Assembly (NCBI GenBank): GCA_023144005.1
Contig: JAGLGN010000006.1
Coordinates: forward strand, 1,841 to 65,840
From: a bacterium
GTDB lineage: Bacteria; AUK180
Length of the DNA stretch: 64,000 bases
Direction of reading: 5' to 3'
In this document: piece after piece, positions 1-52,738 of the stretch
How the letters are laid out: every line of letters starts with the position of its first letter
Position numbering within the stretch: position 1 is the stretch's first letter
Program-made: the position numbers and the translations under genes
Notes under the pieces: model-generated
Told to the model about the DNA's origin: nothing
Seen by the model: only the letters and a program-made list of their open reading frames with translations
Database searches by the model: none

Positions 1-337
1 CCGCGAGTGAAGGTATAATTACTTGTGAACATCCAGCCGTCCTTCTCACCATAAGCATCATCGGCTCTGTCCACGGAGCGCCAGCCAGGTGTCTGTATCA
101 GAAGCGCACCTGTTATAGTATCAGAAATGGTCGCATACCTCGCGGATCCGTATGTTCTTGTCAACTCTCTTACTATCTTGTCGATGTACATCTCTGTTTC
201 CGCCTGAGCTTTCCTCTTGGCAAGGCCGTTCCTGATGGAATTGTATGCCGTGTATATCATGCCGAGCACCAAGAGCGAGACCGACATAACGACGAGAAGC
301 TCAATTAAAGTAAAGCCTTTTCTTTTAGTCTTCATCA
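1..337 (-). CDS. Prepilin-type N-terminal cleavage/methylation domain protein (type IV pilin / T2SS pseudopilin-like), 5' part only; the gene runs off the window start
   Basis: Reverse-strand translation from ATG at ~337 gives MMKTKRKGFTLIELLVVMSVSLLVLGMIYTAYNS..., i.e. the class-III signal (KG|FTLIEL + hydrophobic helix). The frame stays open to position 1. Confidence 0.7.
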
Positions 338-343
338 TTACCA

Positions 344-3300
344 CTAATTACAGGAACAACCGGCTTTCTTGAGACAATTGACCATAACTGTCGCAACATC
401 GCTGCCGGAAGCATCGTTCACCGTGACCGTGACCGTAAAGGTCTGTGTCACATTATCCGAGAAGGTGTAGCTGGTCGTTGTCTTAGGACCGTCAGTCTTG
501 GAAGACGACTTACCATCTCCCCAGTCAAAAGCATAGTGAAATATAGTATCGTCGGGATCGTCTACGGTCACAGTAAAGCCCATAACTACGCCGCCAAGTA
601 ATGTGCATGAGAAAGAGGTTATAACAGGCGGCTGATTGACGCCGATACATGCAGCGTCCTTTTCACAATCGGAGTCGGCACAATCGATATTTCCGTCACC
701 GTCATTGTCTATAGCATCGTTACAATTTGTTTCAACTGTTTGACACAGATAGTAAACACTGCAATCCGGGTCATCGCAATCCACAAGGCCGTCGCCGTCA
801 TCGTCGCTTCCATTGTCGCAGATCTCCGGATTAACGGCTACGCAATTTGCCGCAGCGACACAGTCCGGATCATCACAATCGGTATAGCCGTCGCCGTCAT
901 CGTCAAGGCCATTATTACAAATGGTTTCAATCTTGACACATGCAGTATGGTCTACACAGTCCGTATCCTCGCAATCAATGTAGCCGTCCCCGTCATTATC
1001 CACACCGTCATCACAGATCTCAGTATCGATTCCGGTGGGTGCTGGGAAAAGGATCACGACCATCGTATCCGTATCATAGGCGCCAGAAGGATCTACCACC
1101 TCCAGATACACATCAATATATGCGGGTTCGCTATCATCCGCGCCACCCTTGGCAATAAGAAAATCATCTTCTGTAAATGTATGATAGTATGTGGCACCAT
1201 AATGTGAATTTCCGGTAGAGAAGGCCCAGTAATATGTAAGGTCCGTTAGTGCATCATCACAATCACCCGAACCTCTCGCGTCAAAGTACATCATATTTCC
1301 CACGGTGGTAAAATTATCCGCTCCGGCATTCGCTACCGGCGGGTAATTATATCCCCAGTCCTTCGTGCTGAATATATAGGTCTGCGGACATTTATACTCC
1401 TGAGATTGATCAGTTTTCACAATGATCTCGAAATCACATTGATCCATACCAAATGGAACTGCCTCATATGGAAGATCGGTAATTTGATTTGAAAAATGCA
1501 AATACAGCTTTACGGTGCTGCCGTAATCAGGGATCCACAGATTGGAATGGATCGAGGAGTTCAATTGCAATTCTATCGGGGCTCTTTCTCTTGAGCCCGG
1601 TGTCGGGGAATCATCCCTCCAATCCCAGATAACTCCTCCATTAGACGGATAATATGTGGACGATCCCTGGATCTCTATGGTTATCCTGTCGATATAAGGA
1701 AATGCCGAGGAGGTATCTCCCGAAGAAAGACAGATACTTTTGTATGTCGGTTCTTTGATCTCAATGGAATCAAGGATCATATCCCCGTGGCGGAAGTTCT
1801 CCAATGTGAGGACCACGGTATCATTGCTCGGCCCTTCAAGGACAACATCGCCGCTTAAATAAGGATCACTCATCCCGCTAGGGAAATAAAGGGCGTCGGC
1901 CTGATGGATGGTGAGGAAGCTTACACCTGGGTTATCTTCACTCGGTGGATTATACACATAATTATACGAAGAATCATATGCCATGGTCCTGAACCATAGA
2001 TCATCACGGCTATCGGGAGTTATATACCATTTGACATTATACCAGGTTTCAGGAGGCGAGACAGGAATATAGTGCACATGAGGGGTCATATCGCCGCCGA
2101 AATACATAATGTCCAACGGTACAGCCGCGAATGCCGTTTGGTAAACACCGCATTCATCGATAACATCAAAATCGATGATTATCGGCTCTATATTTGAGGC
2201 AACGCACTCTGAAAAACCAAGTCCGCCGTAATTGAAAACGATATTCGGAGGGCTGTTATCAAATTCAGTAACCTTTATATAGGTATCTTCGGCGTCGCCT
2301 ACGGGTATCATAGTAAAGGAATCACATTTATCATATGCGACTATCTCATAGTAGATATCCGGCAGGTTATCATAGGTACCGCCGCCGGACCAATCTTCAA
2401 TGGCGGTTTCGGGGATCGTCCATGTGAATCGACCCTCCGCGTCCGGGCCTTTTCTGTCGTATATCTCGATCAGAGAGCCCTTATTCCCCGCAGCATCCAG
2501 TTTGGCATAATAAGCCTGTACACGGTTCAGATCAAGTCCGGCAACACCATTGGCGCCGTCCAATATGGTCGCCATGACGAGGCCGTCACAAGCATTGGCA
2601 ACTATTTGTGAGCTGTAATCGCTAATGGTAGGGGGCTGAGAATCATAAATATTCAAGGTAGCGGAATTTGAGTAAGACTCCCTCACAGTAACCGTGCAGT
2701 CCTCTCCGATGAAATCGTCCTGAACATAGACCTGGAGGAACATATCAAAAGGCTCTTCGCCGGCGTATTCCTCGGTACATACGGAATCATTACCGTAGGG
2801 AGAGCCCATATCCGCATTAATAACAGCCGAGGCGGGAACATCAGCCGCATAATAATTCAAACTGCCGGCGTTTTTCAATTCCAATGATACCGCATCAGCT
2901 ATCGTTTCACCGTAATACCAGTAAAGCAATGTAAGCTGCGGCAGCCTTGAAGGACAATTATCATTCAAACCCACTCTGACAGTAAAGGCCGTAGAAACAG
3001 GCAGCGCCTGGGAGGTCCAGTCAATTGCGGCTCCGCCGATGGCAATGATCTCAATATTGTCGATCGAAGGATTATCACAGCATGATTTATCCATTGGTTC
3101 AAAACTGGAGATCACTGTAGAAAGAGTATATTCCTTCATTCTGACCTCTTCAAAGAAAGCATTATCCCCTGAGAGTAGAGCATTCAGGGCAGCTGTGATC
3201 GTAACCATCCGTCTGGTCTCGGGCCAGGAAACGTGGACGGTTACCCTCTTCATATCAAGGCCCTGTCCGGTATAGTCATCAGCGAGATTATTATCTGAAT

Positions 3301-3664
3301 CTATTATTGCTCTTATACGATAGGGTTTATCTTCAGTTCCCGAAAGATCCTGTTCCATGACCACATATTCCACCTCTTCTTTAACAAAGTATTTTTTGGT
3401 GAGTTTGACGCCCATAGATACATAGATATCCCTGTCGTTCTCATAGAGCCAGTTGACATCGGATATGCTGTTGAAATCCGACTGTGCGCGCGACTCAATA
3501 AGATCGATACGGGTCTTTGCAATGAGCTTTGCCTCGTTCTTATGTGTAAGTTGTCTGGCGTTAGCGCCTACTACTCCCAACATCCTGATCACGGCAAAAA
3601 GTCCGACGGTTATAATGGTAACTGCAACAAGAAGCTCGATTATCGTGGTACCTTTGCGTTTCAT
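344..3664 (-). CDS. Giant (1106 aa) pilin-fused adhesin: prepilin-type N-terminus, ~900 aa beta-rich region, four TSP3-like Ca-binding DxDxDGxxDCxDxDC repeats, C-terminal PKD-like domain
   Basis: N-term MKRKGTTIIELLVAVTIITVGLFAV is a prepilin signal. The C-terminal region has DNDGDGYIDCEDTDC, DDDGDGYTDCDDPDC, DDDGDGLVDCDDPDC and DNDGDGNIDCADSDC repeats, then a PKD-like ...HYAFDWGDG...TFTVTVTVNDASG segment. Confidence 0.75.
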   Translation of the reverse strand: MKRKGTTIIELLVAVTIITVGLFAVIRMLGVVGANARQLTHKNEAKLIAKTRIDLIESRAQSDFNSISDVNWLYENDRDIYVSMGVKLTKKYFVKEEVEYVVMEQDLSGTEDKPYRIRAIIDSDNNLADDYTGQGLDMKRVTVHVSWPETRRMVTITAALNALLSGDNAFFEEVRMKEYTLSTVISSFEPMDKSCCDNPSIDNIEIIAIGGAAIDWTSQALPVSTAFTVRVGLNDNCPSRLPQLTLLYWYYGETIADAVSLELKNAGSLNYYAADVPASAVINADMGSPYGNDSVCTEEYAGEEPFDMFLQVYVQDDFIGEDCTVTVRESYSNSATLNIYDSQPPTISDYSSQIVANACDGLVMATILDGANGVAGLDLNRVQAYYAKLDAAGNKGSLIEIYDRKGPDAEGRFTWTIPETAIEDWSGGGTYDNLPDIYYEIVAYDKCDSFTMIPVGDAEDTYIKVTEFDNSPPNIVFNYGGLGFSECVASNIEPIIIDFDVIDECGVYQTAFAAVPLDIMYFGGDMTPHVHYIPVSPPETWYNVKWYITPDSRDDLWFRTMAYDSSYNYVYNPPSEDNPGVSFLTIHQADALYFPSGMSDPYLSGDVVLEGPSNDTVVLTLENFRHGDMILDSIEIKEPTYKSICLSSGDTSSAFPYIDRITIEIQGSSTYYPSNGGVIWDWRDDSPTPGSRERAPIELQLNSSIHSNLWIPDYGSTVKLYLHFSNQITDLPYEAVPFGMDQCDFEIIVKTDQSQEYKCPQTYIFSTKDWGYNYPPVANAGADNFTTVGNMMYFDARGSGDCDDALTDLTYYWAFSTGNSHYGATYYHTFTEDDFLIAKGGADDSEPAYIDVYLEVVDPSGAYDTDTMVVILFPAPTGIDTEICDDGVDNDGDGYIDCEDTDCVDHTACVKIETICNNGLDDDGDGYTDCDDPDCVAAANCVAVNPEICDNGSDDDGDGLVDCDDPDCSVYYLCQTVETNCNDAIDNDGDGNIDCADSDCEKDAACIGVNQPPVITSFSCTLLGGVVMGFTVTVDDPDDTIFHYAFDWGDGKSSSKTDGPKTTTSYTFSDNVTQTFTVTVTVNDASGSDVATVMVNCLKKAGCSCN

Positions 3665-3746
3665 AGGTCCTCCTCTATTGCTAATTAAATTGCACTTTAT
3701 GTGCCAATGGCTTATTTGCCGCTATATTGGACAGATTTCGGACAAA

Positions 3747-4247
3747 TCACCATCGGTCAAGGCAATTATCGACAATTTTAACTGAAATTTTTGTAAACGC
3801 CTCTTCTATCGCGTCGTCTTCCCTGTTCTTGGTATCTCTTTCGGGATAATAATAACCATGGTCAGTTATCTTTCCCTCTTTCAATATCTCCTCTCCCTCT
3901 TTGAATTCATACTCTACCGTGAAGCCGATACGGTACTGCAGCGGCTTGCTTTCTTCATCGAACATCGAGGCCTTTTTCAGGGCATCCGTGATGCTGATAA
4001 CAAGCACACCGCCGGCACGGGATCGATCGGAGGAAATATTGCGGATTCTGATACCGGCATTTGAAAAAGCGTCCGATATTGCGCTTTCCATAATGAAGTC
4101 ACAGGGAAATTCTGTAATGTTCGATATACTTGAAAGCTCAAGTCTACGCTCACCGTTCAAGAGTAAGTTGCCGAATGTATATCCGCAGCCGGTGAACATC
4201 GGAATAAGGATGCTAAATAATAATATTGACCATTTTGCCCGGAACAT
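3747..4247 (-). CDS. lptE: Lipoprotein, LptE-like (LPS-assembly lipoprotein candidate) immediately downstream of leuS
   Basis: Signal peptide plus lipobox (ILIPMFTGCG), ~165 aa, and the conserved leuS-lptE synteny. The protein family call rests on synteny and size. Confidence 0.45.
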   Translation of the reverse strand: MFRAKWSILLFSILIPMFTGCGYTFGNLLLNGERRLELSSISNITEFPCDFIMESAISDAFSNAGIRIRNISSDRSRAGGVLVISITDALKKASMFDEESKPLQYRIGFTVEYEFKEGEEILKEGKITDHGYYYPERDTKNREDDAIEEAFTKISVKIVDNCLDRW

Positions 4248-8382: not shown

Positions 8383-8957
8383 GTGTAGTGTTTCATAATT
8401 AGCTTGATAATGGAATGCTTAGATTTAAGTCAATTCCGACGTACAATGAGCGCGGTGTACCCTTTGTGGTACATAAGCGAAGAGAAAGGAATAAATTGAC
8501 CAAAGATGGGATTCCCTTCGGGCTGAAGCTCTTTTTCCGTCTTCTGCGTTGCTAGTGCTCTTTTTCATAAATACGATGGCAATGGAATGTTTCGATTTGA
8601 GTCAATTCCAACGAACAATAAGCGCGGCGTACCCTTTGTGGTCCGTAAGCGGAGAGAGAGGAAGAAATTGACCAAAGATGATATTCCCTTCGGGCTGAGG
8701 CTCTTTTTCTGTCTTCTGTGTTGCTCGTCGCTTACATACCGCTGTGGGTATGCGACGATCCTCGCTCTTAGAATCCAGAACAAAATAGCATCAGCCATTG
8801 TTACCGTATTTATGAATCAGAGCACTCATTGCTTACATACCGCAGTGGGTATGCGGCGTTCCTCACGCCTCGAATACGGAATAAAATTGCATCAGCCATT
8901 GTCCAGCCAATTATAAAACACTTCACTATAGTGTAGTGTTTTGTGATTCAGAGCACT
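8383..8957. repeat. Composite pile-up of three tandem or partial copies of the ~270 bp MITE-like element (family A): truncated copy ~8383-8560, full copy ~8553-8826, partial copy ~8827-8957
   Basis: Three successive 'aatggaatg(c/t)ttagatttgagtcaattcc...' and 'cttacataccgc..gggtatgc' modules. TIR-like 'agtgctctttttcataaatacg' and 'cgtatttatgaatcagagcact' flank the middle copy. Confidence 0.8.
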
Positions 8958-8969
8958 AAGCGGGGCTTT

Positions 8970-10199
8970 ATGAAAAGATCAATATTGCTACTTTGCCTGT
9001 TTTCATTGCTTATCGTCTTTGCTGATAATAAAATTCCGGCAGCATTTATCGACCTGCAAGAAGGAAATGCCGTGAATAAAGGATTGGTACTTACCATCTC
9101 CGATTATTTCCGTACTCAATTGGTCAATAGGGGGAAGTACCTGATAGTTTCACGCGAAAGTATGGAAGATATCTTGAAGGAACAGCAGTATCAGATATCC
9201 GGATGTACCAGTCAGGAATGCCTCGTACAAATGGGTAAGGTTCTCGGAGTAAGGAGTATGTTCGTGGGAACCCTTGGCAAGGTCGGTTCGATCTTTCTTC
9301 TCAATATCAAGCTCATCAGCGTTGAGACCGGAGAGATCATCGAGGCCACATCGGCGGAAGCGGCTTCCGAAGAAGCGCTTTTGGAAAAGATCAGGCATAT
9401 GGCGGATGAGCTCAGCGGCATTGAGACCGCGCCTGCATTCATGACCTCTCCGATCACTGCTGCACCGAAGAAGGCCACAACGGGCGATGTGCCCAAGTTC
9501 AAGGGACACAACTTCCTGATATTCACATACGGCATCGGCGGCGGCTCGATGAGGTTGAATTTCAGCAATACCAATGACGAGATACTTAAATCGCATCTTG
9601 GGATAACCGGGACTTTTTCCGACCCCTTTGATAATATTGAATGGCGGCATTTGAAAGCTGATATCTCACTCCCGCTTTCTCTGAAGATCGGCGGTGTTTT
9701 CGCCTTTGAAGGGAAAAAGGGATATCCCGGCCTTACCGTAGAGATCTTCTATCAGAATATGGATATCATCGCCCAGGAAACTGCCGTTTATGTTAACGGC
9801 TACGATGTGGGAACCACCGTATTTGTCTATGACAGTTATTTCTCCATAGGAATGCTTGCGGTGGATGTTCAGATCGTATATTATTATGAAATGGCAAAAG
9901 CCGTATCAATTTACGGCGGAGCTGGCTTCGGAATGACAATGAATATGTGGCGATCCGATCATATACTCGGTTATACAACGGGAAGCGGATCATTTGAATC
10001 TCCTGTATCCGGGTATTCCACGGGATTAATGGTGCATCTCCCATTGGGAATAATGGCAGAGATCGGACAATTTAAATTAATGGTGGAATGGGGATTCTGG
10101 GCAACTCTCTTCACATTCACACGAAATGTGGAAGATGAAGAGGATACAGCCGACATCCTGGTCCCGCTGCTGAAATTCGGAGTGGGAGCGAAATTCTGA
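8970..10199 (+). CDS. Outer-membrane protein: signal peptide, CsgG/TolB-N-like periplasmic domain, C-terminal beta-barrel (ends ...GVGAKF)
   Basis: MKRSILLLCLFSLLIVFA signal. An ...RESMEDILKEQQYQISGCTSQEC...GKVLGV... motif typical of CsgG-like N-domains. Alternating hydrophobic C-terminal half ending in Phe. The longest ORF (8943, GTG) starts inside the MITE TIR. Confidence 0.5.
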   Translation: MKRSILLLCLFSLLIVFADNKIPAAFIDLQEGNAVNKGLVLTISDYFRTQLVNRGKYLIVSRESMEDILKEQQYQISGCTSQECLVQMGKVLGVRSMFVGTLGKVGSIFLLNIKLISVETGEIIEATSAEAASEEALLEKIRHMADELSGIETAPAFMTSPITAAPKKATTGDVPKFKGHNFLIFTYGIGGGSMRLNFSNTNDEILKSHLGITGTFSDPFDNIEWRHLKADISLPLSLKIGGVFAFEGKKGYPGLTVEIFYQNMDIIAQETAVYVNGYDVGTTVFVYDSYFSIGMLAVDVQIVYYYEMAKAVSIYGGAGFGMTMNMWRSDHILGYTTGSGSFESPVSGYSTGLMVHLPLGIMAEIGQFKLMVEWGFWATLFTFTRNVEDEEDTADILVPLLKFGVGAKF

Positions 10200-39904: not shown

Positions 39905-41866
39905 TTATCGTATGATCATAAATTTGCCGGTGATCTCCTCTGAGCCGTCATGAGGGACTACCCTGAAGATATATACTCCCGGAGCCAGTAACTGGCCGGA
40001 ATCATTATCCAGATTCCACGCTTCATCAGCGTCCCCGCTGTAATGTTCGATAGTTCGGGCAAGCATTCCGGACATGGTGTATATCTTAATAGAGCATCGG
40101 GAAGGTAAATGGATGAAATCCACCCTTTTATAGCTGGTCTCCCAATACGAGTATTGACCTTCAATGTATGGATTTGGAACCACTTCCACTTTGTATTTGT
40201 AATCTGCCGGGGTAGATTCCTCATGCCATTCAGGAGTGACGGGAAAGACATTCGCGAGAGCCGACGAATATGCGGGAGCCACAGGAGGGGTTGTAGTTCG
40301 ATCGCCCGTATCATATGCGACAACGGAATAATAATAAGTGAAGCCGTTAAAGATAGAGGGATCCGTATCTGTGTATTCCATGAAATAGGTTTCATTCCAA
40401 GAACTTCTATGTAATTCAGAAACCGGGATCTCGCCATAGTGATTTTTTACATAGGTTGATTCCAATTGAACAACAAGGGCATAATCTCCTAATTCGATAT
40501 CCCCCATACCTGTAAGGTTTCTATAGACTCTGTATCCGTCCCAATCCCTGATGCCTGAGTCGGGCGGATCCTCAGAAGATTCAGAACCTATCGAATACTC
40601 TGGGGACGGGTCATCCGCTTCTGAATAATAGCCCTCAAGGCCGCCGGGAAGGGGCTTTGGAATATAATTACGATTCCTTGACCACTTAAGAAATACCGAT
40701 CTGTCGCCTGTCTCAACCTCCAAAAAGGGAGCTTCGGGAGGAGGATTCGGTATCAGCCAGTCATTGTTATATATCTTTCTCGCCGTAGCGGCGTTCTTCT
40801 TGAATTTCACTACATCGTACCCCATGGGATTTGCCCATGACACCGCGGCCGTAGCGCCCATCGGCAGGTCAAAAGGCCCCATGCTGACATATAGCAAGGC
40901 ATCCTGCGGTTTTGCGTTCTTCTCCTGTATCTGATCGGAAGTAAGATAGGTCCAGAAGGCCTCATCATTGCCCCAATCTCCCCAATTTTCATATGTTAGG
41001 TCAAGCTTCACGGACCGCAATGTTGAAGTATCAAATATCGTCAGTCCAGCTACGCCAAGGGTTTCATCGGCGCCATAATAAGAATATGCCGTTCCCAGAG
41101 ATGGATCATAATAAGAAACATTCTTTGCGGCATGGTCCCAATCTACATCAGGATCCATGAAAACACCTATATAGAATTCGGGATAATCGTATTCAGAAGT
41201 ATTTTCAAGCGTCATTATATGTATATTAAAGGCATCCGCATTCGGGTAATTCCAGCGGAGATTTCTAACGGTGGCAAATATCCCAAGAGGGGTGCGGCTA
41301 TAAGAATCTTCTGCGAAGGTTACATAATCCGACTGGGAGAGTGATCCCAATTCCTCATTAATAGAAGAAAAGTAATACCCGTAAAAACTGATCATGTCCT
41401 TGTATGACCCGGGATAAGGTGTCAAAGAATCCTCCGGTGACTGAATGTCGCCCTCCCAGAGAAAATCAGAGATGATGCCGTTGTATCCCCACATAACATT
41501 CTGATCAGAAGCGATCTGTCCTTTCAAATGTTCGCCAAGATTCTTAGGATACTGCCATCCGGCAAAATACGGAGCCCATCCGCCCGCCCACGCGGGATTG
41601 GCGAGCCAGCCGAACCACCAGGCATTAGTTCCGGCGGTGATCGCGTAATTACCGTAACAGTCATTATACATGGAAGATCTTAATGAGACCCACAAATAAT
41701 CATAGGGGATCACATAGAAACAAAAATAAAACGGTGCTTTATCATCCTGGAGTTTTTCCAGGCCCAGAGGGTTGAAATACTGCTCTCTGTTCAAGGGCTT
41801 CTCTAAACTGAAGGCCGAAACAGATAGGAGCACAATAATTATTACCAAAGTTAATTTACTTCTCAT
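39905..41866 (-). CDS. Secreted protein with a T9SS-type (Por) C-terminal sorting domain and an FN3-like module; catalytic or binding function unknown
   Basis: Signal peptide MRSKLTLVIIIVLLSVSAFS. C-terminus ...VEVVPNPYIEG...SIKIYTMSGMLARTIEH...LAPGVYIFRVVPHDGSEEITGKFMIIR matches the T9SS CTD pattern. Confidence 0.6.
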   Translation of the reverse strand: MRSKLTLVIIIVLLSVSAFSLEKPLNREQYFNPLGLEKLQDDKAPFYFCFYVIPYDYLWVSLRSSMYNDCYGNYAITAGTNAWWFGWLANPAWAGGWAPYFAGWQYPKNLGEHLKGQIASDQNVMWGYNGIISDFLWEGDIQSPEDSLTPYPGSYKDMISFYGYYFSSINEELGSLSQSDYVTFAEDSYSRTPLGIFATVRNLRWNYPNADAFNIHIMTLENTSEYDYPEFYIGVFMDPDVDWDHAAKNVSYYDPSLGTAYSYYGADETLGVAGLTIFDTSTLRSVKLDLTYENWGDWGNDEAFWTYLTSDQIQEKNAKPQDALLYVSMGPFDLPMGATAAVSWANPMGYDVVKFKKNAATARKIYNNDWLIPNPPPEAPFLEVETGDRSVFLKWSRNRNYIPKPLPGGLEGYYSEADDPSPEYSIGSESSEDPPDSGIRDWDGYRVYRNLTGMGDIELGDYALVVQLESTYVKNHYGEIPVSELHRSSWNETYFMEYTDTDPSIFNGFTYYYSVVAYDTGDRTTTPPVAPAYSSALANVFPVTPEWHEESTPADYKYKVEVVPNPYIEGQYSYWETSYKRVDFIHLPSRCSIKIYTMSGMLARTIEHYSGDADEAWNLDNDSGQLLAPGVYIFRVVPHDGSEEITGKFMIIR

Positions 41867-43190: not shown

Positions 43191-43400
43191 GTCCCCTATC
43201 TTGATTGGGGTGCGGCGTGAAACGATTGTAACAGAAAATTTAATGTATTAAACGAAATATTTATTTCCGGTTACGGGGGCGCGCAACGCGTGACGTGAAG
43301 AAAATCAAATATCAGTTTTTCTGCTTGCGTCCCTCTTTCTCAACGTGGAACCTTTGAACTTTGAACGCTTCGTTACTGCGAAGCTCCCGCTTCGCTAATT
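43191..43400. repeat. Interspersed repeat family B copy (first and second modules plus a divergent tail), preceded by a reverse-complement GTGAAGTG-type motif at 43155-43180
   Basis: 'gtcccctatcttgattggggtgcggcgtgaaacgattgtaacag...aacgaaatatttatttccggttacggggg...cccgcttcgcta'. Confidence 0.7.
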
Positions 43401-44066
43401 TATTATCAATTGATCGAGGTCAAATACATATGTCAATTTGATGGAGACCTTTATATTTTTGCCGTTTTGCACCGCGCCTGTAAATTTGCAGAGCTTTCCG
43501 GAGTTAAGAGCGGCCTTGTCCAATCTATCATACCCGGATGACTCCAATATCTCGGTGCCATAAATATTACCCTCTTCATCGAGATACAGCGTCAACACGA
43601 CCGTTCCCTCGAAACCCATCTTGATCGCAAGATCAGGATAAGCTGGAATGGATTTATATATTAGCATCGGAGCCGCAATTGTACCTGCCCTGTCATTACT
43701 TATCGACGGCGAGAACGAAGTGTTAACATTTGAATTCAAGTCTGCTATAACGCGCTCAAGATCCTCTTCATCCACCAGGTTTTTCGGCATTTCAGTAGGT
43801 TCGGGAATAGGGTGGTCACCGGATGGCGGTCTTAATGTATTCTCGGTGGAGACAGGCTTCGGAGGAGGAGGTGGCGGGCGAAAGTCCTCCCATACCAGAT
43901 CGATCGGGCCTTGTGGAGGGGGCAATGGATCCGAAATAGTGATCACTGGGTTGACAAATACAAATAAAGCAATATGAACAAGCATAGCGAAACAGAAAGC
44001 CAGAAGCTTCCTTTTAAGCGGAACCTCTTTCCTGAAAAAGTATCTTTTCCCTTGACGAAGATTCAT
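43395..44066 (-). CDS. tonB: TonB family protein (proline-rich spacer plus TonB C-terminal domain)
   Basis: TM anchor; PPPQGP...PPPPPPKP; C-terminal ...YPDLAIKMGFEGTVVLTLYLDEEGNI... Confidence 0.7.
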   Translation of the reverse strand: MNLRQGKRYFFRKEVPLKRKLLAFCFAMLVHIALFVFVNPVITISDPLPPPQGPIDLVWEDFRPPPPPPKPVSTENTLRPPSGDHPIPEPTEMPKNLVDEEDLERVIADLNSNVNTSFSPSISNDRAGTIAAPMLIYKSIPAYPDLAIKMGFEGTVVLTLYLDEEGNIYGTEILESSGYDRLDKAALNSGKLCKFTGAVQNGKNIKVSIKLTYVFDLDQLIIN

Positions 44067-44180
44067 AATATCCTCCTCTATCTATAATATTATAATTGAG
44101 AAAAGGACGATTTGTCAACTGTTTGAATGGTCGATCAGCCCGGCTACTGCGGCTTCGCCGGGCTATTTGATATTATCGGA

Positions 44181-44843
44181 TCAGTAGGTCTCTACAGAGA
44201 TCCCTTCCAAAAGATATTTATAAGTAAGTTCGACATCTATATCATCGACGGCGGTGTCACCCTGCATCGCAGCTGTAAATACACAGAGCTTCGCGGCGTT
44301 CATCGCGGCCTTGTCAAGAATATCGGAGCCGGAGGTCTTAAGTAGATATACCTTTCTGACCTGCCCTTTATTATCAAGTGTGCAGACCACTTTCACCGCG
44401 CCTTCAAGGCCCATTTCCTTGGCGATCTGCGGGTAAGTACCCGGATGCCTCTTTACAAGCATGGGAGGTATTATCGCACCGATATCTCTTAAGTTATGCG
44501 GTGTTGTATCTTCATCGATCATGATCTCAGGAATTTCAGGTATCGGTTCTTCATCCTTTCTCGGATCCGGAACTGCCTTCGGAATTGCCCTTTTTCGCGG
44601 TTTGTAGATATTCTTTGTTTTCTTCATTTTCTGATCTAATTTCTTTTTCGGAATGGTGTATTTCAAGGGTTTGAATATCTTTCTTTTTCCCGCCTTATAT
44701 TTATTCGGGCCCTTCTTGAACTCTCTGATACCGACAAATAATCCTATATGAACCACTATCGCGAGGATCAAAGCAATAAGGGTCGTCTTTTGAGAAAATT
44801 TTCTCTCTGTTTCCAGACGCTTTTTTATTACATCTATCATCAT
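44181..44843 (-). CDS. tonB: TonB family protein, second paralog
   Basis: TM anchor, K/P-rich linker, C-terminal ...YPQIAKEMGLEGAVKVVCTLDNKGQV... Confidence 0.7.
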   Translation of the reverse strand: MMIDVIKKRLETERKFSQKTTLIALILAIVVHIGLFVGIREFKKGPNKYKAGKRKIFKPLKYTIPKKKLDQKMKKTKNIYKPRKRAIPKAVPDPRKDEEPIPEIPEIMIDEDTTPHNLRDIGAIIPPMLVKRHPGTYPQIAKEMGLEGAVKVVCTLDNKGQVRKVYLLKTSGSDILDKAAMNAAKLCVFTAAMQGDTAVDDIDVELTYKYLLEGISVETY

Positions 44844-44855
44844 AATACGACTCCT

Positions 44856-45296
44856 TTATTCCCCGCCTACTTCTTTAGAGTAGTCGAAATCCTCATAGCT
44901 CTCTTCGGTTGACTGGAAGGCGATATTATCGATACCGCCCAATAAGACGCTGTCAATGGTATCAACAAGATAGCTGTACGGGGTTTTTGGATCCACCTTG
45001 ATCACGACAAAGGCATCCTTTTGGACCATCTTTGTTGTTTTAACTGTGGTCTTGACCTCATCCAGAGAAACGATGGATTCGTTCATCATTACAACACCGT
45101 ACGCATCTATATATATCTCAATATTCTTCTGATCGAGGGTTACCTCTTTCACCGAATCTGGAAGCTCGTATTTCAAGCCGGATTCCTGCGAAAATACCGT
45201 TGTAAGCATAAAAAAGATTATAAGCAGAAAAGCGATATCGGACATTGAAGAAGCAGGTATCGCTGTTGATGCTTTTGATTTGTTTTTTACCTTCAT
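44856..45296 (-). CDS. exbD: Biopolymer transport protein ExbD/TolR
   Basis: SMSDIAFLLIIFFMLTTVF N-terminal TM motif. Confidence 0.8.
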   Translation of the reverse strand: MKVKNKSKASTAIPASSMSDIAFLLIIFFMLTTVFSQESGLKYELPDSVKEVTLDQKNIEIYIDAYGVVMMNESIVSLDEVKTTVKTTKMVQKDAFVVIKVDPKTPYSYLVDTIDSVLLGGIDNIAFQSTEESYEDFDYSKEVGGE

Positions 45297-45303
45297 CCTA
45301 CAC

Positions 45304-45714
45304 CTATTTCTTATAGTCCACTGCCAGGGCGACCTTATTCACATATCCCTCCTGAATGCTGTTTAGGACTCTCTTTATGATCTCATAGGGGATACTTCCG
45401 TCGGCCTTGAGAACCACATACAGATTGGCTCTTTTTGAACCCTCGACCATAATATGCGCCGAGAGAGCTTCGATAAAAACAGGTTTGCCCTCTAATCTCA
45501 CCATTGTGCCGTCATCTCCCTTTTGCAGGGTAACATGAAGAACTGTCTGCTCCAGGGTTTCCGGCTTTGTAGCTTGAGGAAGAGTAAGGTCCAGGCCCTG
45601 ATCTTTATTGAAGACCGTGGTTATCATGAAGAAGATTATAAGCAGAAAGGCTATATCGGACATGGCGGAATCTGGAATATTCGTATTCGCCTTCAGTCCC
45701 TTTGATAACTTCAT
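45304..45714 (-). CDS. exbD: Biopolymer transport protein ExbD/TolR, second paralog
   Basis: AMSDIAFLLIIFFMITTVF. Confidence 0.8.
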   Translation of the reverse strand: MKLSKGLKANTNIPDSAMSDIAFLLIIFFMITTVFNKDQGLDLTLPQATKPETLEQTVLHVTLQKGDDGTMVRLEGKPVFIEALSAHIMVEGSKRANLYVVLKADGSIPYEIIKRVLNSIQEGYVNKVALAVDYKK

Positions 45715-46376
45715 TACTTGGTCAACTCCATTTCCTCCAGAACCTCAAGCAGTACACTTGAAGACTCCTGAATATCCATTGTGAACCTATCCAGGAAGTT
45801 TACAAAAAAGTTGTACATAATGAGAGCGGGAGCGGATATGATAAGACCTGTCGCTGTGGTGACAAGTGCTTCGGAAATACCGCCGGCGACAATAGTAGGA
45901 TCTCCAAGACCCGCGGTGGCCATGGAGCCGAAGGCGCCGATCATACCGGTAACAGTTCCAAGGAACCCAAAAATAGGAGCCAAAGAAACGACAGTTGCCA
46001 GCCAGACGAGACCTTTTTCAAGACTGGACAATTCGACCGCTGCCGCGGCTTCCATTGTCTTTTCGATCATGTCTCTTTTTTCCTGAGATTTCACCTTCAG
46101 TGTAGAGACCTTCTGAAGGTCGCTGTATTTTGTCAGACCTTCATGAAGAACCGCAGGAATTGGCCCGTTGGTTTTTTCACAAAGATCAAGAGCGCTGTCA
46201 AGATCATCCTTCTCCAGAAGCTCAATGATCATTCCCAAAAATTCTTTGGTATTGATCTTTCTCTTATAATAAGTGATCATTCTTTCAAAGAAAATGAATA
46301 ACGCAAGTAATGATAAGAGCAGAAGCGGCCACATCATCGGGCCACCTTGCTTAAATTTTTCTAATAGAAATCCCAT
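45714..46376 (-). CDS. exbB: MotA/TolQ/ExbB proton channel protein
   Basis: Three TM helices; ...TVTGMIGAFGSMATAG... conserved region. Confidence 0.8.
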   Translation of the reverse strand: MGFLLEKFKQGGPMMWPLLLLSLLALFIFFERMITYYKRKINTKEFLGMIIELLEKDDLDSALDLCEKTNGPIPAVLHEGLTKYSDLQKVSTLKVKSQEKRDMIEKTMEAAAAVELSSLEKGLVWLATVVSLAPIFGFLGTVTGMIGAFGSMATAGLGDPTIVAGGISEALVTTATGLIISAPALIMYNFFVNFLDRFTMDIQESSSVLLEVLEEMELTK

Positions 46377-46398
46377 TCGTCACTCCTTTATTTAATAA

Positions 46399-48768
46399 TT
46401 AAAAACTAACCGTAATGCCGGCTTTAGCACGCTGGGGGGCGCTGTACAATGCCGCTGACCCGTCCGCATAGACTCCGGTAATATTTCTGGTATCGAAAAC
46501 ATTGGTAAGTTCTAAATATAATTTATACTTCATACCGAACCATTTGATACCGTCAAAGGCCTTCCACAAACTCATATCTACCCTCTTGTAATCGGGGAAT
46601 CTTGCATCGTTGACCAGGCCCTTTTTACTTCCATCAACTGAGGTATAGGGCATTCCGGTATGCCAATAACCGATAACCGAAGCGCCGAGACCGTTATTTC
46701 CTTCATAGCCGACCTGAAGTATAACATTATGAGTTACATCCCAATCAAGGGGATATTCCTTCGGCGGCAGAACATCTATGGAAATATAAGGATTTGAAGA
46801 TGTACCCTTTGCGTCGGAAAGGGTGTATGCAAGTCTCCAATAATAATTATTCGCAAATCCCTTGGTAAGCTGAACCTCGAGGCCCTGAGCATAGGAATGA
46901 TCGACATTCATGGGCATATCACGGTCGCTGCCGCTAAGACGGGAATTTCCCGCGACGAATTTGATAAGGTCACTTGTATTCTTATAATAGGTGACCATGT
47001 CCAATTTCAGCACATCCGAAAGAAGGTATGTGATACCATATTCAAATGCGACCGCGTTAGCAGCTTCCAAATACTGATTGTTCGACTGGTCTTTATATGA
47101 TTCATACTTCTCCTGAAGAACATACATTGCCGCCGGCGGCTGATAGAAGATGCCGTAAGTAAAGCGGAATTTGGTTCTGTCATTGATGGCGAATGAAAGG
47201 AACGCCCTTGGGGAGAACTGTGATCCGGCATATTGCCTTCTGTCATATCTGAGCCCAACATTCATTACAAGATCCTGATCCCAATCCATGAAATCAAGGA
47301 CGTAGAACGCCTGCTCATCCATGAACCTATGATAGGCATCCCTGTAAGCGGAATCCTCAATGGCGGGATATGTCTGGAAATTCTCCAGAAGGTCATAGTA
47401 ATTATACTGAAGACCGGCTTTTATCTGATGTATCTTGTTAAGCTGATTGACTATGTCTATTTTGAATGAGTATTGTGTCGAAGTTCTGTCCTCATACACG
47501 GGGTAATCTCTTGAATCGGGGTCATAGGACCACTCATATTCTTCCGGTTCTTTATCACCGACACCAACTACGATCTGGTTCTGAAATCTATATAAGAATA
47601 TCTGATAGAAGAGGTTCATGGAAATGGTGTGAGCCCATTCGAAGTTAACCTGATTGTTCATCTGCCATTGTGTGGGCTGATGCTCTACGGTAGGTGTGGC
47701 ATATGATCTTGAGACCAAGTAATCGATCGAGGCCCAGGAATACTGATACCCCAATTTGGCTTTCATCCTGGGTGATATCTTCATGGTCAATTTGGAAGAA
47801 GTATCGTTGAAATTCTGCCAATTATAGCGCACATAATCATAATCATAATCCTGGTCCGCCTGCAATGTTCCATTAAAATCGGGATTGGAGAGCCACTTCA
47901 GATCAGATGTAAAGCTCGATCCCGAGGTATAAAAGGTCAGTAATGGGCCGCGCTTTGTCTTTTTGAAGATCGGGATGGGGCCGCCCAATTCCCAGTTTAT
48001 ATCGACATCGCCCTGGTCCGCGGCCTTCCACACAAGATTGCCTGTCCAATAAGCGAATCTTCCCGAATACTTTTTTCCGCCTTCTTTGGTAACGACATTA
48101 ACGATACCCGAAAGAGCACCGCCGTACTCAGCGGAAAATCCACCGGTCTTCACGGAGATTTCTTTAATGGCCCAATTATTGATATTTCCACCGAAGGTCC
48201 CCGTTACAGGATCCTTGATCGTCATACCGTCAACCATATAGTTGACCTCATCGCTACGGCCGCCGCGAATATGAAGCTGTCCGCCTTCGCCGACAACGCC
48301 GGGGACGGTTTGAACTATTCTCTGGAAGCTGGAAATCGGTGTATCGGTGATCTCTGCCTCTGAAAGGACATGATCGGTACCGCCTTTATCCCTCTGTATC
48401 TTCACAACTCTCTTATCTTTAACGATAATGACCTCTGAAGTTGCCGCACCCCTTTCCAATCTGATCGGGGGTTCTGTTGATGTTGAATCCGATGTGATAA
48501 TAATATTTTCCCTGATAACCGGTTTGTATTTAACATGGGTTACCGCTATGGAATAAATATCGACGGCAAGGCCACTGAAGTAGTATTCTCCTCTCTCATC
48601 GGTAGCGGTTTCAAGCCCAATAGGTTCGATCACCACTTTAGCATCGACCACGGGATTTCCGGAACTGTCATCGACAACGATTCCTTTGACTGCTCCTGTA
48701 TTTCCTGCATAGGTAACCATACCAACAATAATAAATACCGTTAATATTAAAATCTTCCAGTGCTTCAT
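46399..48768 (-). CDS. TonB-dependent receptor with N-terminal carboxypeptidase-regulatory-like domain (SusC/RagA-style architecture)
   Basis: Signal peptide, CarboxypepD_reg-like GIVVDDSSGNPVVDAKVVI, plug region, and a long barrel ending ...AGITVSF. Confidence 0.75.
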   Translation of the reverse strand: MKHWKILILTVFIIVGMVTYAGNTGAVKGIVVDDSSGNPVVDAKVVIEPIGLETATDERGEYYFSGLAVDIYSIAVTHVKYKPVIRENIIITSDSTSTEPPIRLERGAATSEVIIVKDKRVVKIQRDKGGTDHVLSEAEITDTPISSFQRIVQTVPGVVGEGGQLHIRGGRSDEVNYMVDGMTIKDPVTGTFGGNINNWAIKEISVKTGGFSAEYGGALSGIVNVVTKEGGKKYSGRFAYWTGNLVWKAADQGDVDINWELGGPIPIFKKTKRGPLLTFYTSGSSFTSDLKWLSNPDFNGTLQADQDYDYDYVRYNWQNFNDTSSKLTMKISPRMKAKLGYQYSWASIDYLVSRSYATPTVEHQPTQWQMNNQVNFEWAHTISMNLFYQIFLYRFQNQIVVGVGDKEPEEYEWSYDPDSRDYPVYEDRTSTQYSFKIDIVNQLNKIHQIKAGLQYNYYDLLENFQTYPAIEDSAYRDAYHRFMDEQAFYVLDFMDWDQDLVMNVGLRYDRRQYAGSQFSPRAFLSFAINDRTKFRFTYGIFYQPPAAMYVLQEKYESYKDQSNNQYLEAANAVAFEYGITYLLSDVLKLDMVTYYKNTSDLIKFVAGNSRLSGSDRDMPMNVDHSYAQGLEVQLTKGFANNYYWRLAYTLSDAKGTSSNPYISIDVLPPKEYPLDWDVTHNVILQVGYEGNNGLGASVIGYWHTGMPYTSVDGSKKGLVNDARFPDYKRVDMSLWKAFDGIKWFGMKYKLYLELTNVFDTRNITGVYADGSAALYSAPQRAKAGITVSF

Positions 48769-49031: not shown

Positions 49032-50699
49032 TCAAGTCCTTTTAAACATTTTTTCGAGATCTTTTGAGGATAATTTTATAAGCGTCGGACGGCCGTGAGG
49101 GCATTGATACGGGTTTTCACAAAGGCAGAGGTCCTTCAATATTTCAGAAATGAGATCAAAGGACAGATTGTCGCCTGCCTTGACGGCGGATTTACACGCA
49201 AGATCCTTTACCCAGTCCATGAATGAAAAGTTCTCCTCTTCCAATGACTCAAGCAATGTTCCGATGCCGTCAAGAGGGAATCTTAATGCCAGCCATGGAG
49301 GGACCGCGATTATCCGGTCACCGTCATCAGAGATATCAAATCCCGCATTCCTCAGAAATTTGATGTGATGGTCCGCCAGAACACGGTCAAGCTCGAAAGG
49401 GATCAGGAGTTCCTGTGACAATTTCACCGAACGCTTCATTTCTTTGCTGATCTTCTCAAAAAGGACACGCTCATCAGCGGCATGCTGATCCATCAGGTAT
49501 AATTCATCCTGCCCCTTGAAAATAAGGTAGGTGTCCTTTATTCTGCCGATAAAACTGACATGGGCACCGAATAATTCCAGTCGCTGATGCGTTATGTGAA
49601 CAGGTGTCTGGCCGTTAATTTCAGAAAGCGAACCACTGAAGTCCAAGGAAGATTGGACTGACCCGGGGGAAGTACTTGAAAAAGATGCAGTGCTCTCCGG
49701 TGTAAATACCTCAACTTCATCCTTCAATACAGAAGATACTCCGTAGAAGATCAGATCTCTTACCAGCGCGGCCGCAAGAAAGCGGACCTCTGTTTTTCTC
49801 GGATGTACATTTACATCCACATGAGATGCGGGTACGGTCAGATTTATTATACCTACCGGGAAAGTGCCTTTCATCATATAAGGTTCGTAAGCAGAAGTAA
49901 GGTAATAGATCAACTTCTGATCTCTTAACATCCGGCCGTTCATACTTACATAAAGCCGTTTCTTGTTCTTTCTGAATATTCTCGGTTTTGAAACAACTCC
50001 CGTGAGCGACATTCCCTGCTCTCCTTCATGCCTGATTTCCAGAAGGTCCTTTCCCGTAATATCCTTAAAGAGCAATGCGAGACGCTCGGCAAGAGAACTT
50101 GGAGGGAATGACCATTTCTCTACTCCCTCATTGAAAAATCTGAATCTGATCTCAGGATACATCAGCGCGAAACTGTAAAAATGATCCAGAATTTCCAGGT
50201 ATTCGCTTCTTGAGGATTTTAGGAATTTTTTTCTGCCGGGAACATTAAAAAAAAGTTCTTTCACGGAAATATTTGTTCCCGACGGGCCGCCTCTTTCGTG
50301 TTGATCAATGATATTTCCCCCATCCATCTCGATATAATTGCCGCTTTCCGAGGAAGGGGTTTTTGAAAAAATACCGATGCGTGAAACCGAGGCTATGCTG
50401 GGAAGGGCTTCGCCTCGAAATCCGAGAGTATGGATCGCATCGAGGTCTTCAAGGCTCTTTATCTTACTTGTGGCATAACGCGTAAATGCCGAATTCATAT
50501 CGTCAGGCACCATGCCTTCGCCATTATCCACAACACGGATAAGCCGGGTGCCGCCTTCTTCAATATGTATAGAAATACTGTCGGCACCGGCATCAATGCT
50601 GTTTTCCAGCAATTCCTTCAGAACAGAGGCGGGGCGTTCTACGACCTCACCCGCGGCGATCTTATTAATTAAAGCCGCTTCAAGTTTCTTTATCTTCAT
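49032..50699 (-). CDS. mutL: DNA mismatch repair protein MutL
   Basis: GHKL ATPase motifs (ELLENSIDAGA, DNGEGM); start chosen at MKIKKLEAALINKIAAGEVV, whose ATG overlaps the mlaD stop (ATGA). The longest ORF starts at 50873. Confidence 0.85.
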   Translation of the reverse strand: MKIKKLEAALINKIAAGEVVERPASVLKELLENSIDAGADSISIHIEEGGTRLIRVVDNGEGMVPDDMNSAFTRYATSKIKSLEDLDAIHTLGFRGEALPSIASVSRIGIFSKTPSSESGNYIEMDGGNIIDQHERGGPSGTNISVKELFFNVPGRKKFLKSSRSEYLEILDHFYSFALMYPEIRFRFFNEGVEKWSFPPSSLAERLALLFKDITGKDLLEIRHEGEQGMSLTGVVSKPRIFRKNKKRLYVSMNGRMLRDQKLIYYLTSAYEPYMMKGTFPVGIINLTVPASHVDVNVHPRKTEVRFLAAALVRDLIFYGVSSVLKDEVEVFTPESTASFSSTSPGSVQSSLDFSGSLSEINGQTPVHITHQRLELFGAHVSFIGRIKDTYLIFKGQDELYLMDQHAADERVLFEKISKEMKRSVKLSQELLIPFELDRVLADHHIKFLRNAGFDISDDGDRIIAVPPWLALRFPLDGIGTLLESLEEENFSFMDWVKDLACKSAVKAGDNLSFDLISEILKDLCLCENPYQCPHGRPTLIKLSSKDLEKMFKRT

Positions 50700-51970
50700 C
50701 ACATCGTAATGCCGAAGAGATACTTGAAATCCTCCTCTCTGAATCGTATTGAAAGGCCGAATTTCACGGCAGGAGAATGTATGAGGTCGTCGAAGGTCAG
50801 ATTGATCCCCGCCCATTTGATATACTGCCGGAAAGATATTCTGAGATTGAGGGCATTGAAACCCTGATCCCAATGGAAGGTCTCCAGCCGTAAACGGCTC
50901 CGTTCGGTGAAATTATACCCGAGTCCGATCGCGGGGGTTTCCTCGGTTATTCCCGCGGAAATAACAAATCTGTTCAATACTACATTCAGAGTGGCGTTGA
51001 GTTTCGCGTCACCGCTGCCTATTTTCGAAATTCCGAATGAGTAAAATCTGTTCTTAGCGGGATAAAATTCAAAATTAAGGTTACCGTCAAAGGCGGAAAG
51101 CGCACGATCCGACACAAGGTCGCCATACCACCAGAACTGCAGCTCCTTTCCTTTTGCCAAAGCGGTTTCCAATTCTTCAGATAAGGATGTAAGCCGCTTA
51201 TGAAGCTTGTCATCATTCAGTAGTTTACCGAGAGTGCCTTCTCCTTTGTTCAATTTTTCAATGGCGGGAAGCGTCTCATCCATTACCAGATTGAACTTCT
51301 TTCCCGCAATATTCAGATTATCTATGGCATCGTCAATATTGGGATTGTCCAGGAGTTTATTGAATTTGGAAAGCATTGATTTCGCGTTACTTATCATATC
51401 AACTATATCATCCGTTGATCCCTCAAGGGGCTTTACGAGCCGGTCGATTTGAGCAAAGGCTTTATCCATGCCCTTATTCAAACCATCCAGCGACTCATTT
51501 ATCAGCATAATGGTTTCTTCAAATTTGCCCAGTTTCAGAGAAAAATCGTTCAGATTGAAGATAAGATCTCCCATAGACACCGCGTCTCTTCCTGTAAGTA
51601 TGAGGCCTTTCGCGTTTTCCTCATGATAGCCCGCGGAGGGATCGCCGATGGTGATCTCCACATACGCCTCACCGATAATGCCGAGTGAATTTATATATAT
51701 CAACGCCTCTTTATTGATCCTTATTCCTCTTTGTATCTCCATAAGGACTCTGGGATGCGCGTCGTGTATATAGACCTTGGCGACCGAACCGATCTTTACG
51801 CCGGAAAGCCGGACAGGAGTTCCGGAATCCAGGCCGCCCACATATGAAAAGTCCACTAAAACCTTGTAATTTCGCTTCTTTATCTGATAATTGGATATGG
51901 TAATAATAAACCATGCCATTACGATAATCACGAATGTCGCGAACAATCCTATTTTTATCTCTTTTCCCAT
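50699..51970 (-). CDS. mlaD: MCE-domain protein MlaD with a long C-terminal extension
   Basis: N-terminal TM then the MCE fold ...VGGLDSGTPVRLSGVKIGSV... Confidence 0.7.
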   Translation of the reverse strand: MGKEIKIGLFATFVIIVMAWFIITISNYQIKKRNYKVLVDFSYVGGLDSGTPVRLSGVKIGSVAKVYIHDAHPRVLMEIQRGIRINKEALIYINSLGIIGEAYVEITIGDPSAGYHEENAKGLILTGRDAVSMGDLIFNLNDFSLKLGKFEETIMLINESLDGLNKGMDKAFAQIDRLVKPLEGSTDDIVDMISNAKSMLSKFNKLLDNPNIDDAIDNLNIAGKKFNLVMDETLPAIEKLNKGEGTLGKLLNDDKLHKRLTSLSEELETALAKGKELQFWWYGDLVSDRALSAFDGNLNFEFYPAKNRFYSFGISKIGSGDAKLNATLNVVLNRFVISAGITEETPAIGLGYNFTERSRLRLETFHWDQGFNALNLRISFRQYIKWAGINLTFDDLIHSPAVKFGLSIRFREEDFKYLFGITM

Positions 51971-52737: not shown

Positions 52738-52738
52738 A

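Follow-up and report, generated by a model that had tools for sequence, protein, structure and literature searches.

Modular pilins consist of a small N-terminal pilin module with non-pilus domains grafted onto it. A survey of such proteins listed more than 1,200 of them in 264 architectures, the most extreme multi-domain case having 860 residues; pilin+PKD+PKD_4 architectures were already in the dataset (3 proteins), and modular pilins acting as tip adhesins have been documented (Raynaud et al. 2021, PMC8179133). Here we describe a gene for a 1106-residue protein of similar design, found at one end of a 64,000-nucleotide stretch of DNA (the window) from a bacterium of AUK180. AUK180 is a GTDB candidate phylum with three genomes, from hydrothermal sediments (PMC11382960). 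We lean, with some reserve, to the view that this protein is a modular minor pilin carrying a tip-displayed adhesin stalk stiffened by calcium. The gene is as follows.

344..3664 (-): gene for the modular prepilin-like protein, 1106 residues (from the list of open reading frames; stop codon TAG at 344-346)

Pilins at the PilV/GspI position are 100-190 residues long. The AUK180 protein resembled them in helix alpha1, in the I-J-K order of its gene set, of which the last member lacks the glutamate at +5 (Glu5), and in the 'TVTVSW' strand motif. On the other hand, it carried about 930 extra residues at the same position, missed the curated cut-offs and had Thr at +1, and no FimU/GspH or PilE partner was present in the cluster.

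PilY1/PilC proteins are about 1000 residues long or more and are presented by the minor-pilin tip complex. A DxDxDG-type calcium site of PilY1 controls pilus dynamics. PilY1 itself is no pilin, and its C-terminal domain is a beta-propeller. The AUK180 protein would be similar to PilY1 in size and tip presentation, but it has no beta-propeller domain, and the adhesin here would be a covalent part of the pilin at the PilV position. No PilY1 gene was found in the cluster. This suggested that the extension may replace a PilY1-type adhesin.

CofB and TcpB of type IVb systems (PMC8179133) are tip proteins in which beta-repeat and beta-sandwich domains likewise follow a pilin module. They differ in being about 500 residues long and trimeric and in having neither calcium repeats nor PKD domains, and no sequence similarity to the AUK180 protein was detected. 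Closer in design are the modular pilins of Streptococcus sanguinis (PilB with a vWA domain and PilC with a lectin domain; PMC8179133), which share the small N-terminal pilin module, the grafted non-pilus domains and the predicted display at the tip. Compared with the surveyed modular pilins, the AUK180 protein is larger (1106 versus 860 residues), has about 10 extra modules and comes from a diderm candidate-phylum host.

The gene and its expression signals

3669..3675 (-): Shine-Dalgarno sequence GAGGAGG, with a gap of 4 nt before the ATG (read from the sequence)

Nine metagenomic contigs, which came from several samples, each encoded an identical copy of the 1106-residue protein. Comparison with a 91%-identical orthologue (locus L003) gave a ratio of non-synonymous to synonymous substitution rates (dN/dS) of 0.11 for the whole gene. 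Together with the ribosome-binding site, these results showed that 344..3664 is a real gene under purifying selection.

The gene starts 82 bp downstream of leuS and a gene for an LptE-like lipoprotein, and its stop codon lies directly at the start of a second prepilin gene or overlaps it. The lipoprotein (3747..4247 (-), 166 residues) has the lipobox FTGC and gave a nearly full-length, sub-threshold match to LptE. Overlap of its gene with the end of leuS makes this the classic leuS-lptE linkage.

Two open reading frames lie on the opposite strand.

740..1207 and 940..1158 (+): antisense open reading frames opposite the coding region of the Asp-rich repeats (considered spurious)

They were rejected as genes. 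They sit within the Asp-rich repeat coding region and are almost certainly artefacts of its GAT/GAC-rich codon composition.

The N-terminal pilin-like module

3587..3664 (-): class III-type signal with the leader MKRKG (residues 1-5), the predicted cut between G5 and T6, Glu10 (position +5) and the hydrophobic helix alpha1-N (residues 6-26) (from sequence and alignment)
3140..3664 (-): PilV/GspI-type pilin module, residues 1-175, with helix alpha1 (8-68), about five beta strands and the last-strand motif 'VTVHVSWPE' (from weak profile matches, hhalign and AlphaFold 2)

The protein starts MKRKG/TTIIELLVAVTIITVGLFAVI, where the slash marks the predicted cut. The short basic leader ends in Gly at -1, Glu is at +5 (TTIIE, with the Glu at residue 10), and about 21 hydrophobic residues follow, as in class III signals. 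Gly5, Thr6, Glu10 and the hydrophobic tract were invariant in an alignment of all orthologues at 45-50% identity. A prepilin N-terminus had been proposed in the preliminary description, and in these residues the proposal held.

A hidden Markov model profile of residues 1-773, made with HMMER from family members only, was used to scan 1.84 billion representative proteins. Among the 12 matches were two short canonical pilins, P0025 (206 residues, G/FTLLE) and P0024 (121 residues); their alignment with the family covered residues 1-180 and took in the last-strand motif VTVxVSWP. When the profile was widened with these short pilins, it gathered 587 proteins, many of them named PilV and a few with Pfam T2SSI.

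The family-only N-terminal alignment was compared by hhalign with an alignment of PilV-named proteins; the family-only form was chosen to avoid circularity. The match had a probability of 98.4% and an E value of 5.4e-15 and covered residues 3-58, which form helix alpha1. Searches of the Protein Data Bank (PDB) sequences with the module profiles matched only type IV pilins and pseudopilins (geopilin, MshA, TcpA, PilE, GspI and GspG).

AlphaFold 2 modelling of the N-terminal module from an 81-sequence alignment gave a 61-residue helix (8-68) and five beta strands, with a mean predicted local distance difference test score (pLDDT) of 71.6. The topology of this model would be compatible with a pilin fold. 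The module had profile-level homology to PilV/GspI, and its gene takes the first place in a set ordered as V-W-X or I-J-K. We interpreted residues 1-175 as a divergent PilV/GspI-type pilin module, for which helix alpha1 is well supported and the globular part is plausible.

The three-gene cluster

1..338 (-): second prepilin gene, 5' part, cut at the window edge, 267 residues in full; starts M(M)KTKRKG/FTLIELLVV

The second gene was found complete in the same organism (L013) and in L003. The 267-residue protein passed both N_methyl (33.1 bits) and TIGR02532 (27.5 bits), as expected from the earlier claim that the downstream gene also encodes a prepilin. The third gene encodes 424 residues starting MKERKG/SILMLVIVILAG. 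This protein has KG/S at the predicted cut and a hydrophobic helix, and is without Glu5. All three proteins share the leader type MK[RK]xG. After the third gene the strand flips to unrelated genes, and the cluster is therefore of exactly three genes.

The order of the cluster is thus a V/I-like gene, which encodes the 1106-residue protein and comes first, a canonical pilin of about 260 residues, and a larger protein without Glu5, all co-oriented. This order mirrors pilV-pilW-pilX and gspI-gspJ-gspK, and the gene cluster of minor pilins or pseudopilins seen in the preliminary description was borne out. In PilVWX and GspIJK systems, the member without Glu5 (GspK/PilX) caps the filament. From the order of the genes and the lack of Glu5 in the third protein, the trio is most likely a priming and tip complex of a type IVa pilus.

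The arrangement of 1106, 267 and 424 residues was retained in the same organism and in five related lineages. The order leuS-lptE-big-J-K was kept in lineages of which the LeuRS proteins are only about 65-66% identical, and the pilin trio was also present in L002, L007 and L008. One of the orthologue-bearing metagenome-assembled genomes (MAGs) is AUK180, the namesake of the candidate phylum. In this MAG (L004 6404..7150 (+)), position -1 of the second trio pilin is Ala rather than Gly (MNKKKA/FTLMELMVV).

Evidence against a filament subunit, and two alternatives

A number of results weigh against the reading as a modular minor pilin. The 1106-residue protein passed neither Pfam N_methyl (PF07963; 15.8 bits versus a cut-off of 21.2) nor TIGR02532 (11.1 versus 16.3). 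Its best weak whole-family matches were PilV (TIGR02523; 22.4 versus 52.2 bits) and GspI (TIGR01707, PF02501; 21.7 versus 44.35 bits), both below cut-off and both covering residues 4-62 only. The residue at +1 is Thr6 and not Phe (or Met/Leu). The hhalign homology was confined to alpha1 and did not cover the globular part, and when the N-terminal model was searched against PDB with Foldseek, no pilin was matched significantly. The full-length AlphaFold 2 model, run with six homologues, was poor (mean pLDDT 50.7). The 424-residue protein had no family in Pfam, NCBIfam or PDB profile searches; with no family detectable, its putative PilX/GspK role is assigned from gene order and N-terminal features only.

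Genes for an assembly machine were sought in 40 open reading frames of the window, in 10 kb past each end in the same organism and in the loci of relatives. No prepilin peptidase, PilB, PilC, PilM to PilQ or Gsp gene was found in these approximately 84 kb or in the fetched loci of relatives, with the exception of one PilT. The preliminary description had suggested a check of the neighbourhood for pil or gsp assembly genes: the window and about 20 kb of flanks had none, and the PilT lies on a contig of a related genome.

In that genome, GCA_030622125.1 (L007 10340..11497 (-)), an ATPase of the PilT/PilU family is encoded 5 kb from the orthologous trio, with 453.6 bits for TIGR01420 against a cut-off of 319.1. 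In the loci fetched for the lineage, no other machine gene of a type IV filament was seen. A component of a retractile type IVa pilus is therefore present in at least this one member of the wider group. The genomic context of the distant short PilV-like relatives P0027 and P0033 is that of other organisms and has little bearing on the AUK180 lineage.

Some of these results would also be expected if the protein were not a filament subunit. It would then have an ordinary Sec signal or signal-anchor and be a membrane-tethered or secreted surface protein, with a likeness to pilins in the hydrophobic helix only. Every curated prepilin model was sub-threshold, Thr is at +1, the peptidase and assembly genes were missing from the window and flanks, and A-N-A/R at residues 34-37 is readable as a signal-peptidase I site. 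However, this AxA-like site was not conserved in the orthologues, whereas Gly5 and Glu10 were invariant, and the Sec-signal reading was rejected on this ground. The prepilin +1 position tolerates substitution for cleavage, so that Thr there is atypical, not disqualifying; a more distant relative (P0020) has Ser at +1. Moreover, the PilV homology runs through the amphipathic part of the helix, alpha1-C, to residue 58, with the strand 'VTVxVSW' in common. Translational coupling links the gene to a bona fide prepilin gene, which is followed by a third protein of the same leader type. The other giant surface proteins of the organism bear C-terminal domains of the type IX secretion system (T9SS), and the 1106-residue protein is without one. 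We consider it very unlikely that the protein is of this kind.

The trio could instead form a GspI-J-K-like tip on a type II secretion system (T2SS) pseudopilus or on another type IV filament that is not a pilus. The extension would then lie in the periplasm or the secretin vestibule and serve, for example, in substrate handling. GspI scored about equal to PilV (21.7 and 22.4 bits), Pfam T2SSI was present on some of the profile matches, and GspI chains in PDB were among the weak matches over the globular part. Three genes, the last without Glu5 and with no gene of FimU/GspH or PilE type among them, are also like a minimal I-J-K core. On the other hand, no gspD, gspE or gspF was found nearby, and the sole machine gene near an orthologous cluster, PilT, is specific to retractile type IVa pili. 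Most of the named relatives of the pilin module are also called PilV. Disulfide/calcium repeats and PKD/HYR domains in an appendage of about 930 residues are what is typically found in extracellular adhesins, and such an appendage is hard to fit in a periplasmic pseudopilus. A pseudopilus tip is in our judgement improbable.

The acidic, probably calcium-binding repeats

647..1015 (-): four acidic double-disulfide repeats, residues 884-909, 916-941, 949-974 and 981-1006 (from NF033662 and a regular expression)

Each repeat has 26 residues of the form C-x-[DN]-x-x-D-[DN]-D-G-D-G-x-x-D-C-x-D-x-D-C-x5-C. The preliminary description had noted four repeats with paired cysteines and had taken them for thrombospondin type 3 repeats. 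The count of four was right, but each repeat has four Cys and not two. The NCBIfam model NF033662 ("acidic double-disulfide repeat") matched in four stretches, with 112.8 bits where the cut-off is 41. On the other hand, Pfam TSP_3 (PF02412) gave no match to the protein at E<=1. Membership in TSP_3 was rejected on this basis, and NF033662 and the teneurin C-rich domain were preferred; what the repeats here have in common with thrombospondin type 3 is the DxDxDGxxD calcium-loop chemistry only. The inferred chemistry in the preliminary description was essentially correct, and the family label was not.

The closest solved structure was the C-rich domain of human Teneurin-4 (7PLP; phmmer E value 1.4e-5, in register). 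This domain binds three calcium ions through E835, D840, D843, N844, D845, D847, D851, D854, D856 and backbone carbonyls; its disulfides are 1-3, 2-5 and 4-6, and its calcium sites I and II are coordinated like thrombospondin type 3 repeats, although the domain as a whole is said by the authors to resemble no other known fold (Meijer et al. 2022, PMC9058538).

When the ligands were mapped from 7PLP, the side-chain positions D840 to D856, which are eight of the calcium ligands, were all Asp or Asn in 4/4 repeats. A Glu lies 2-3 residues ahead of the first Cys in each repeat. Teneurin Cys 1, 2, 3 and 5 were retained with identical spacing (C-13-C-4-C-5-C), and Cys 4 was absent. Cys 6, of which the position is beyond the mapped segment, was taken as absent because each repeat has only four Cys. 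The absence of Cys 4 and Cys 6 leaves two disulfides per repeat, in agreement with the NCBIfam name. Teneurin has a single copy with six Cys and three disulfides, whereas the AUK180 protein has four tandem copies with four Cys each, without the 4-6 pair.

Judged from these ligand positions, the four acidic repeats very probably bind calcium, and each is predicted to bind up to three ions. The copy number of the repeats varied from 0 to 4 across the orthologues. No tandem repeat was found at the DNA level in the region, which indicated that the repeats are old. The bacterial NF033662 repeats look like homologues of the metazoan teneurin C-rich domain, and such a homologue may be unreported.

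The central beta-rich region and the PKD domains

1343..3139 (-): central beta-rich region, residues 176-774, about four beta-sandwich domains (from AlphaFold 2 and Foldseek)
2252..2635 (-): HYR-like Ig-fold domain, residues 344-471, beginning at the 'QPPTI' boundary (from a profile segment match)
1040..1342 (-): first PKD domain (PKD1), residues 775-875 (second Pfam stretch and PDB profile match)
380..634 (-): C-terminal PKD domain (PKD2), residues 1011-1095 (Pfam, above cut-off)
347..358 (-): conserved C-terminal C[ST]C[NQ] end, CSCN here, residues 1103-1106 (from alignment)

No Pfam family was found for residues 176-774. The full-length model predicted beta-sandwich domains and strands at moderate confidence in residues 200-565. 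Foldseek of this model returned generic Ig/FN3/macroglobulin strings with TM scores of 0.08-0.14, which support no more than a "string of beta-sandwiches". The profile segment 328-368 matched 17 stretches of P0022, a protein with 18 Pfam HYR domains. This indicated that at least the domain at residues 344-471 is HYR-like; this region was among the best-modelled parts of the full-length prediction. The vicinal pair Cys195-Cys196 (3080..3085 (-)), where the first domain beyond the pilin module starts, was invariant in the motif SCCDNPS.

The terminal PKD domain of the preliminary description was recovered above the Pfam cut-offs (PF18911, 39.8 bits versus 27; PF00801, 36.5 versus 23.5). The PKD and PKD_4 matches fell in two stretches, the second of which, PKD1, the preliminary description had missed. 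The PKD1 profile matched PKD structures of collagenases (4aqo, 4jrw and 2y72) with E values of 5e-7 to 1e-5. PKD2 was likewise among the best-modelled portions of the full-length prediction (pLDDT 70-86). It was also the fastest-evolving one, with a dN/dS of 0.28 against 0.07-0.11 elsewhere, about three times the rest, in the comparison with L003.

All full-length orthologues terminate in C[ST]C[NQ] at the carboxyl end (CSCN, CTCN, CTCQ or CSCQ). This end might form a terminal disulfide, bind a metal or serve as a sorting signal.

These domains also bear on what the extension of a tip-displayed modular pilin would do. In place of an adhesin for cells or hosts, it could be a tether to a polymer or mineral (for example polysaccharide, protein fibres or particles in hydrothermal sediment), or a passive spacer, rigidified by calcium, that presents only the last PKD domain. 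The closest solved relatives of the PKD domains are from collagenases, where PKD accompanies the binding of insoluble substrates; no lectin, vWA or enzyme domain was recognizable in the Pfam scan; PKD2 evolves fastest; and the related MAGs originate from deep-sea hydrothermal sediments. Such a role would refine the adhesin-stalk reading without contradicting it, and the evidence does not discriminate between ligands. As a separate explanation, we regard the tether or spacer as unlikely.

Proposed arrangement at the filament tip

How the modular minor pilin would be cleaved, incorporated into a filament, placed at its tip and brought to adhere to a ligand in a calcium-dependent manner, we infer as follows. 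The leader MKRKG would presumably be removed after Gly5 by a PilD-type peptidase. The pilin module (residues 6-175) would be inserted through its hydrophobic alpha1 in a type IV filament core. The trio would assemble as a priming complex like PilVWX or GspIJK and end at the filament tip, with the 424-residue protein, which lacks Glu5, on top.

The extension of about 930 residues would project from the tip as a stalk tens of nanometres long. In order, this stalk would consist of about four Ig/HYR-like beta-sandwiches, PKD1, four modules of the teneurin C-rich type, and the distal, faster-evolving PKD2. Two disulfides and up to three calcium ions would lock each module and stiffen the segment between both PKD domains. 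The ligand would be contacted by the distal PKD2, by the HYR-like domains, or by both. The stalk would then be a calcium-stiffened adhesin, with one polypeptide in the role that classical pili give to PilY1 or a separate adhesin. Since each domain is a narrow beta-sandwich or mini-module, passage through a secretin as beads on a string is conceivable.

A more specific proposal may be made, which we hold only tentatively and think rather doubtful as a whole. In AUK180 and its relatives, the tip complex would have no separate adhesin of PilY1 type. The pilin at the PilV position would have grown a stalk of about 930 residues, and the four modules (up to about 12 calcium ions) would serve adhesion or retraction as a calcium-dependent rigidifier or switch. 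NF033662 would be a prokaryotic homologue of the teneurin C-rich domain.

The cell envelope and other surface proteins

The window is otherwise housekeeping, with ribosomal operons, RpoA, DnaB, MutL, RF-1 and others. It also contains markers of a diderm envelope: the LptE-like protein, Mla genes, ExbB, two TonB, a TonB-dependent receptor and an outer-membrane beta-barrel protein. The source organism is diderm. Two clusters lie at 43395..48768 and 50699..53506 (-), one of ExbB, two TonB and the TonB-dependent receptor, which has a CarboxypepD_reg N-domain, and the other of MlaD/F/E.

A 653-residue protein (39905..41866 (-)) has a weak T9SS C-terminal sorting-domain or PorZ-like tail. Just past the right end of the window (L017 1..2344), a CHU_C T9SS signal is present on a 2781-residue FG-GAP protein. 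T9SS seems to be the export route of other giant surface proteins in this organism. In a 418-residue protein (8943..10199 (+)), the N-terminal region is CsgG-like/DUF3280 and is followed by a long C-terminal extension.

Distribution and implications

Six homologues were found among 5.8 billion clustered proteins, besides the 12 family-profile matches among the 1.84 billion representatives. The family is tiny and tied to the candidate phylum AUK180. The rarity of modular pilins of this size, which had been stated in the preliminary description, agreed with these counts and with the 860 residues of the largest example singled out in the survey. Overall, the observation made there was confirmed, and its interpretation partly supported.

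By the definition of the survey (PMC8179133), the AUK180 protein is a modular pilin, with a pilin module joined to HYR-like, PKD and NF033662 modules, but the operational signature IPR012902 would not be reached at threshold. Because the pilin motif is below the InterPro/Pfam threshold, motif-based surveys would miss the protein. What is new here is the size, the PilV/GspI position, the repeats of teneurin C-rich type, the divergent motif and the restriction to a tiny family. The combination of HYR-like and PKD domains with teneurin-C-rich-type repeats has not been described before.

Modular pilins and fusions of pilin with PKD had already been catalogued. The protein extends this known design and does not change the picture of type IV filaments. 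Surveys that depend on motif thresholds overlook such proteins, as seen from N_methyl, which is below cut-off here. If the homology of the repeats is true, a bacterial homologue of the teneurin C-rich domain would add to the proposal that parts of teneurins are of bacterial ancestry. If the reading as a modular minor pilin is correct, the grafting of modules onto pilins reaches a stalk of about 10 domains at the PilV/GspI position of a tip complex. The protein would then be among the largest and most elaborate pilin subunits described, and would come from a barely known, uncultured lineage of hydrothermal sediments.

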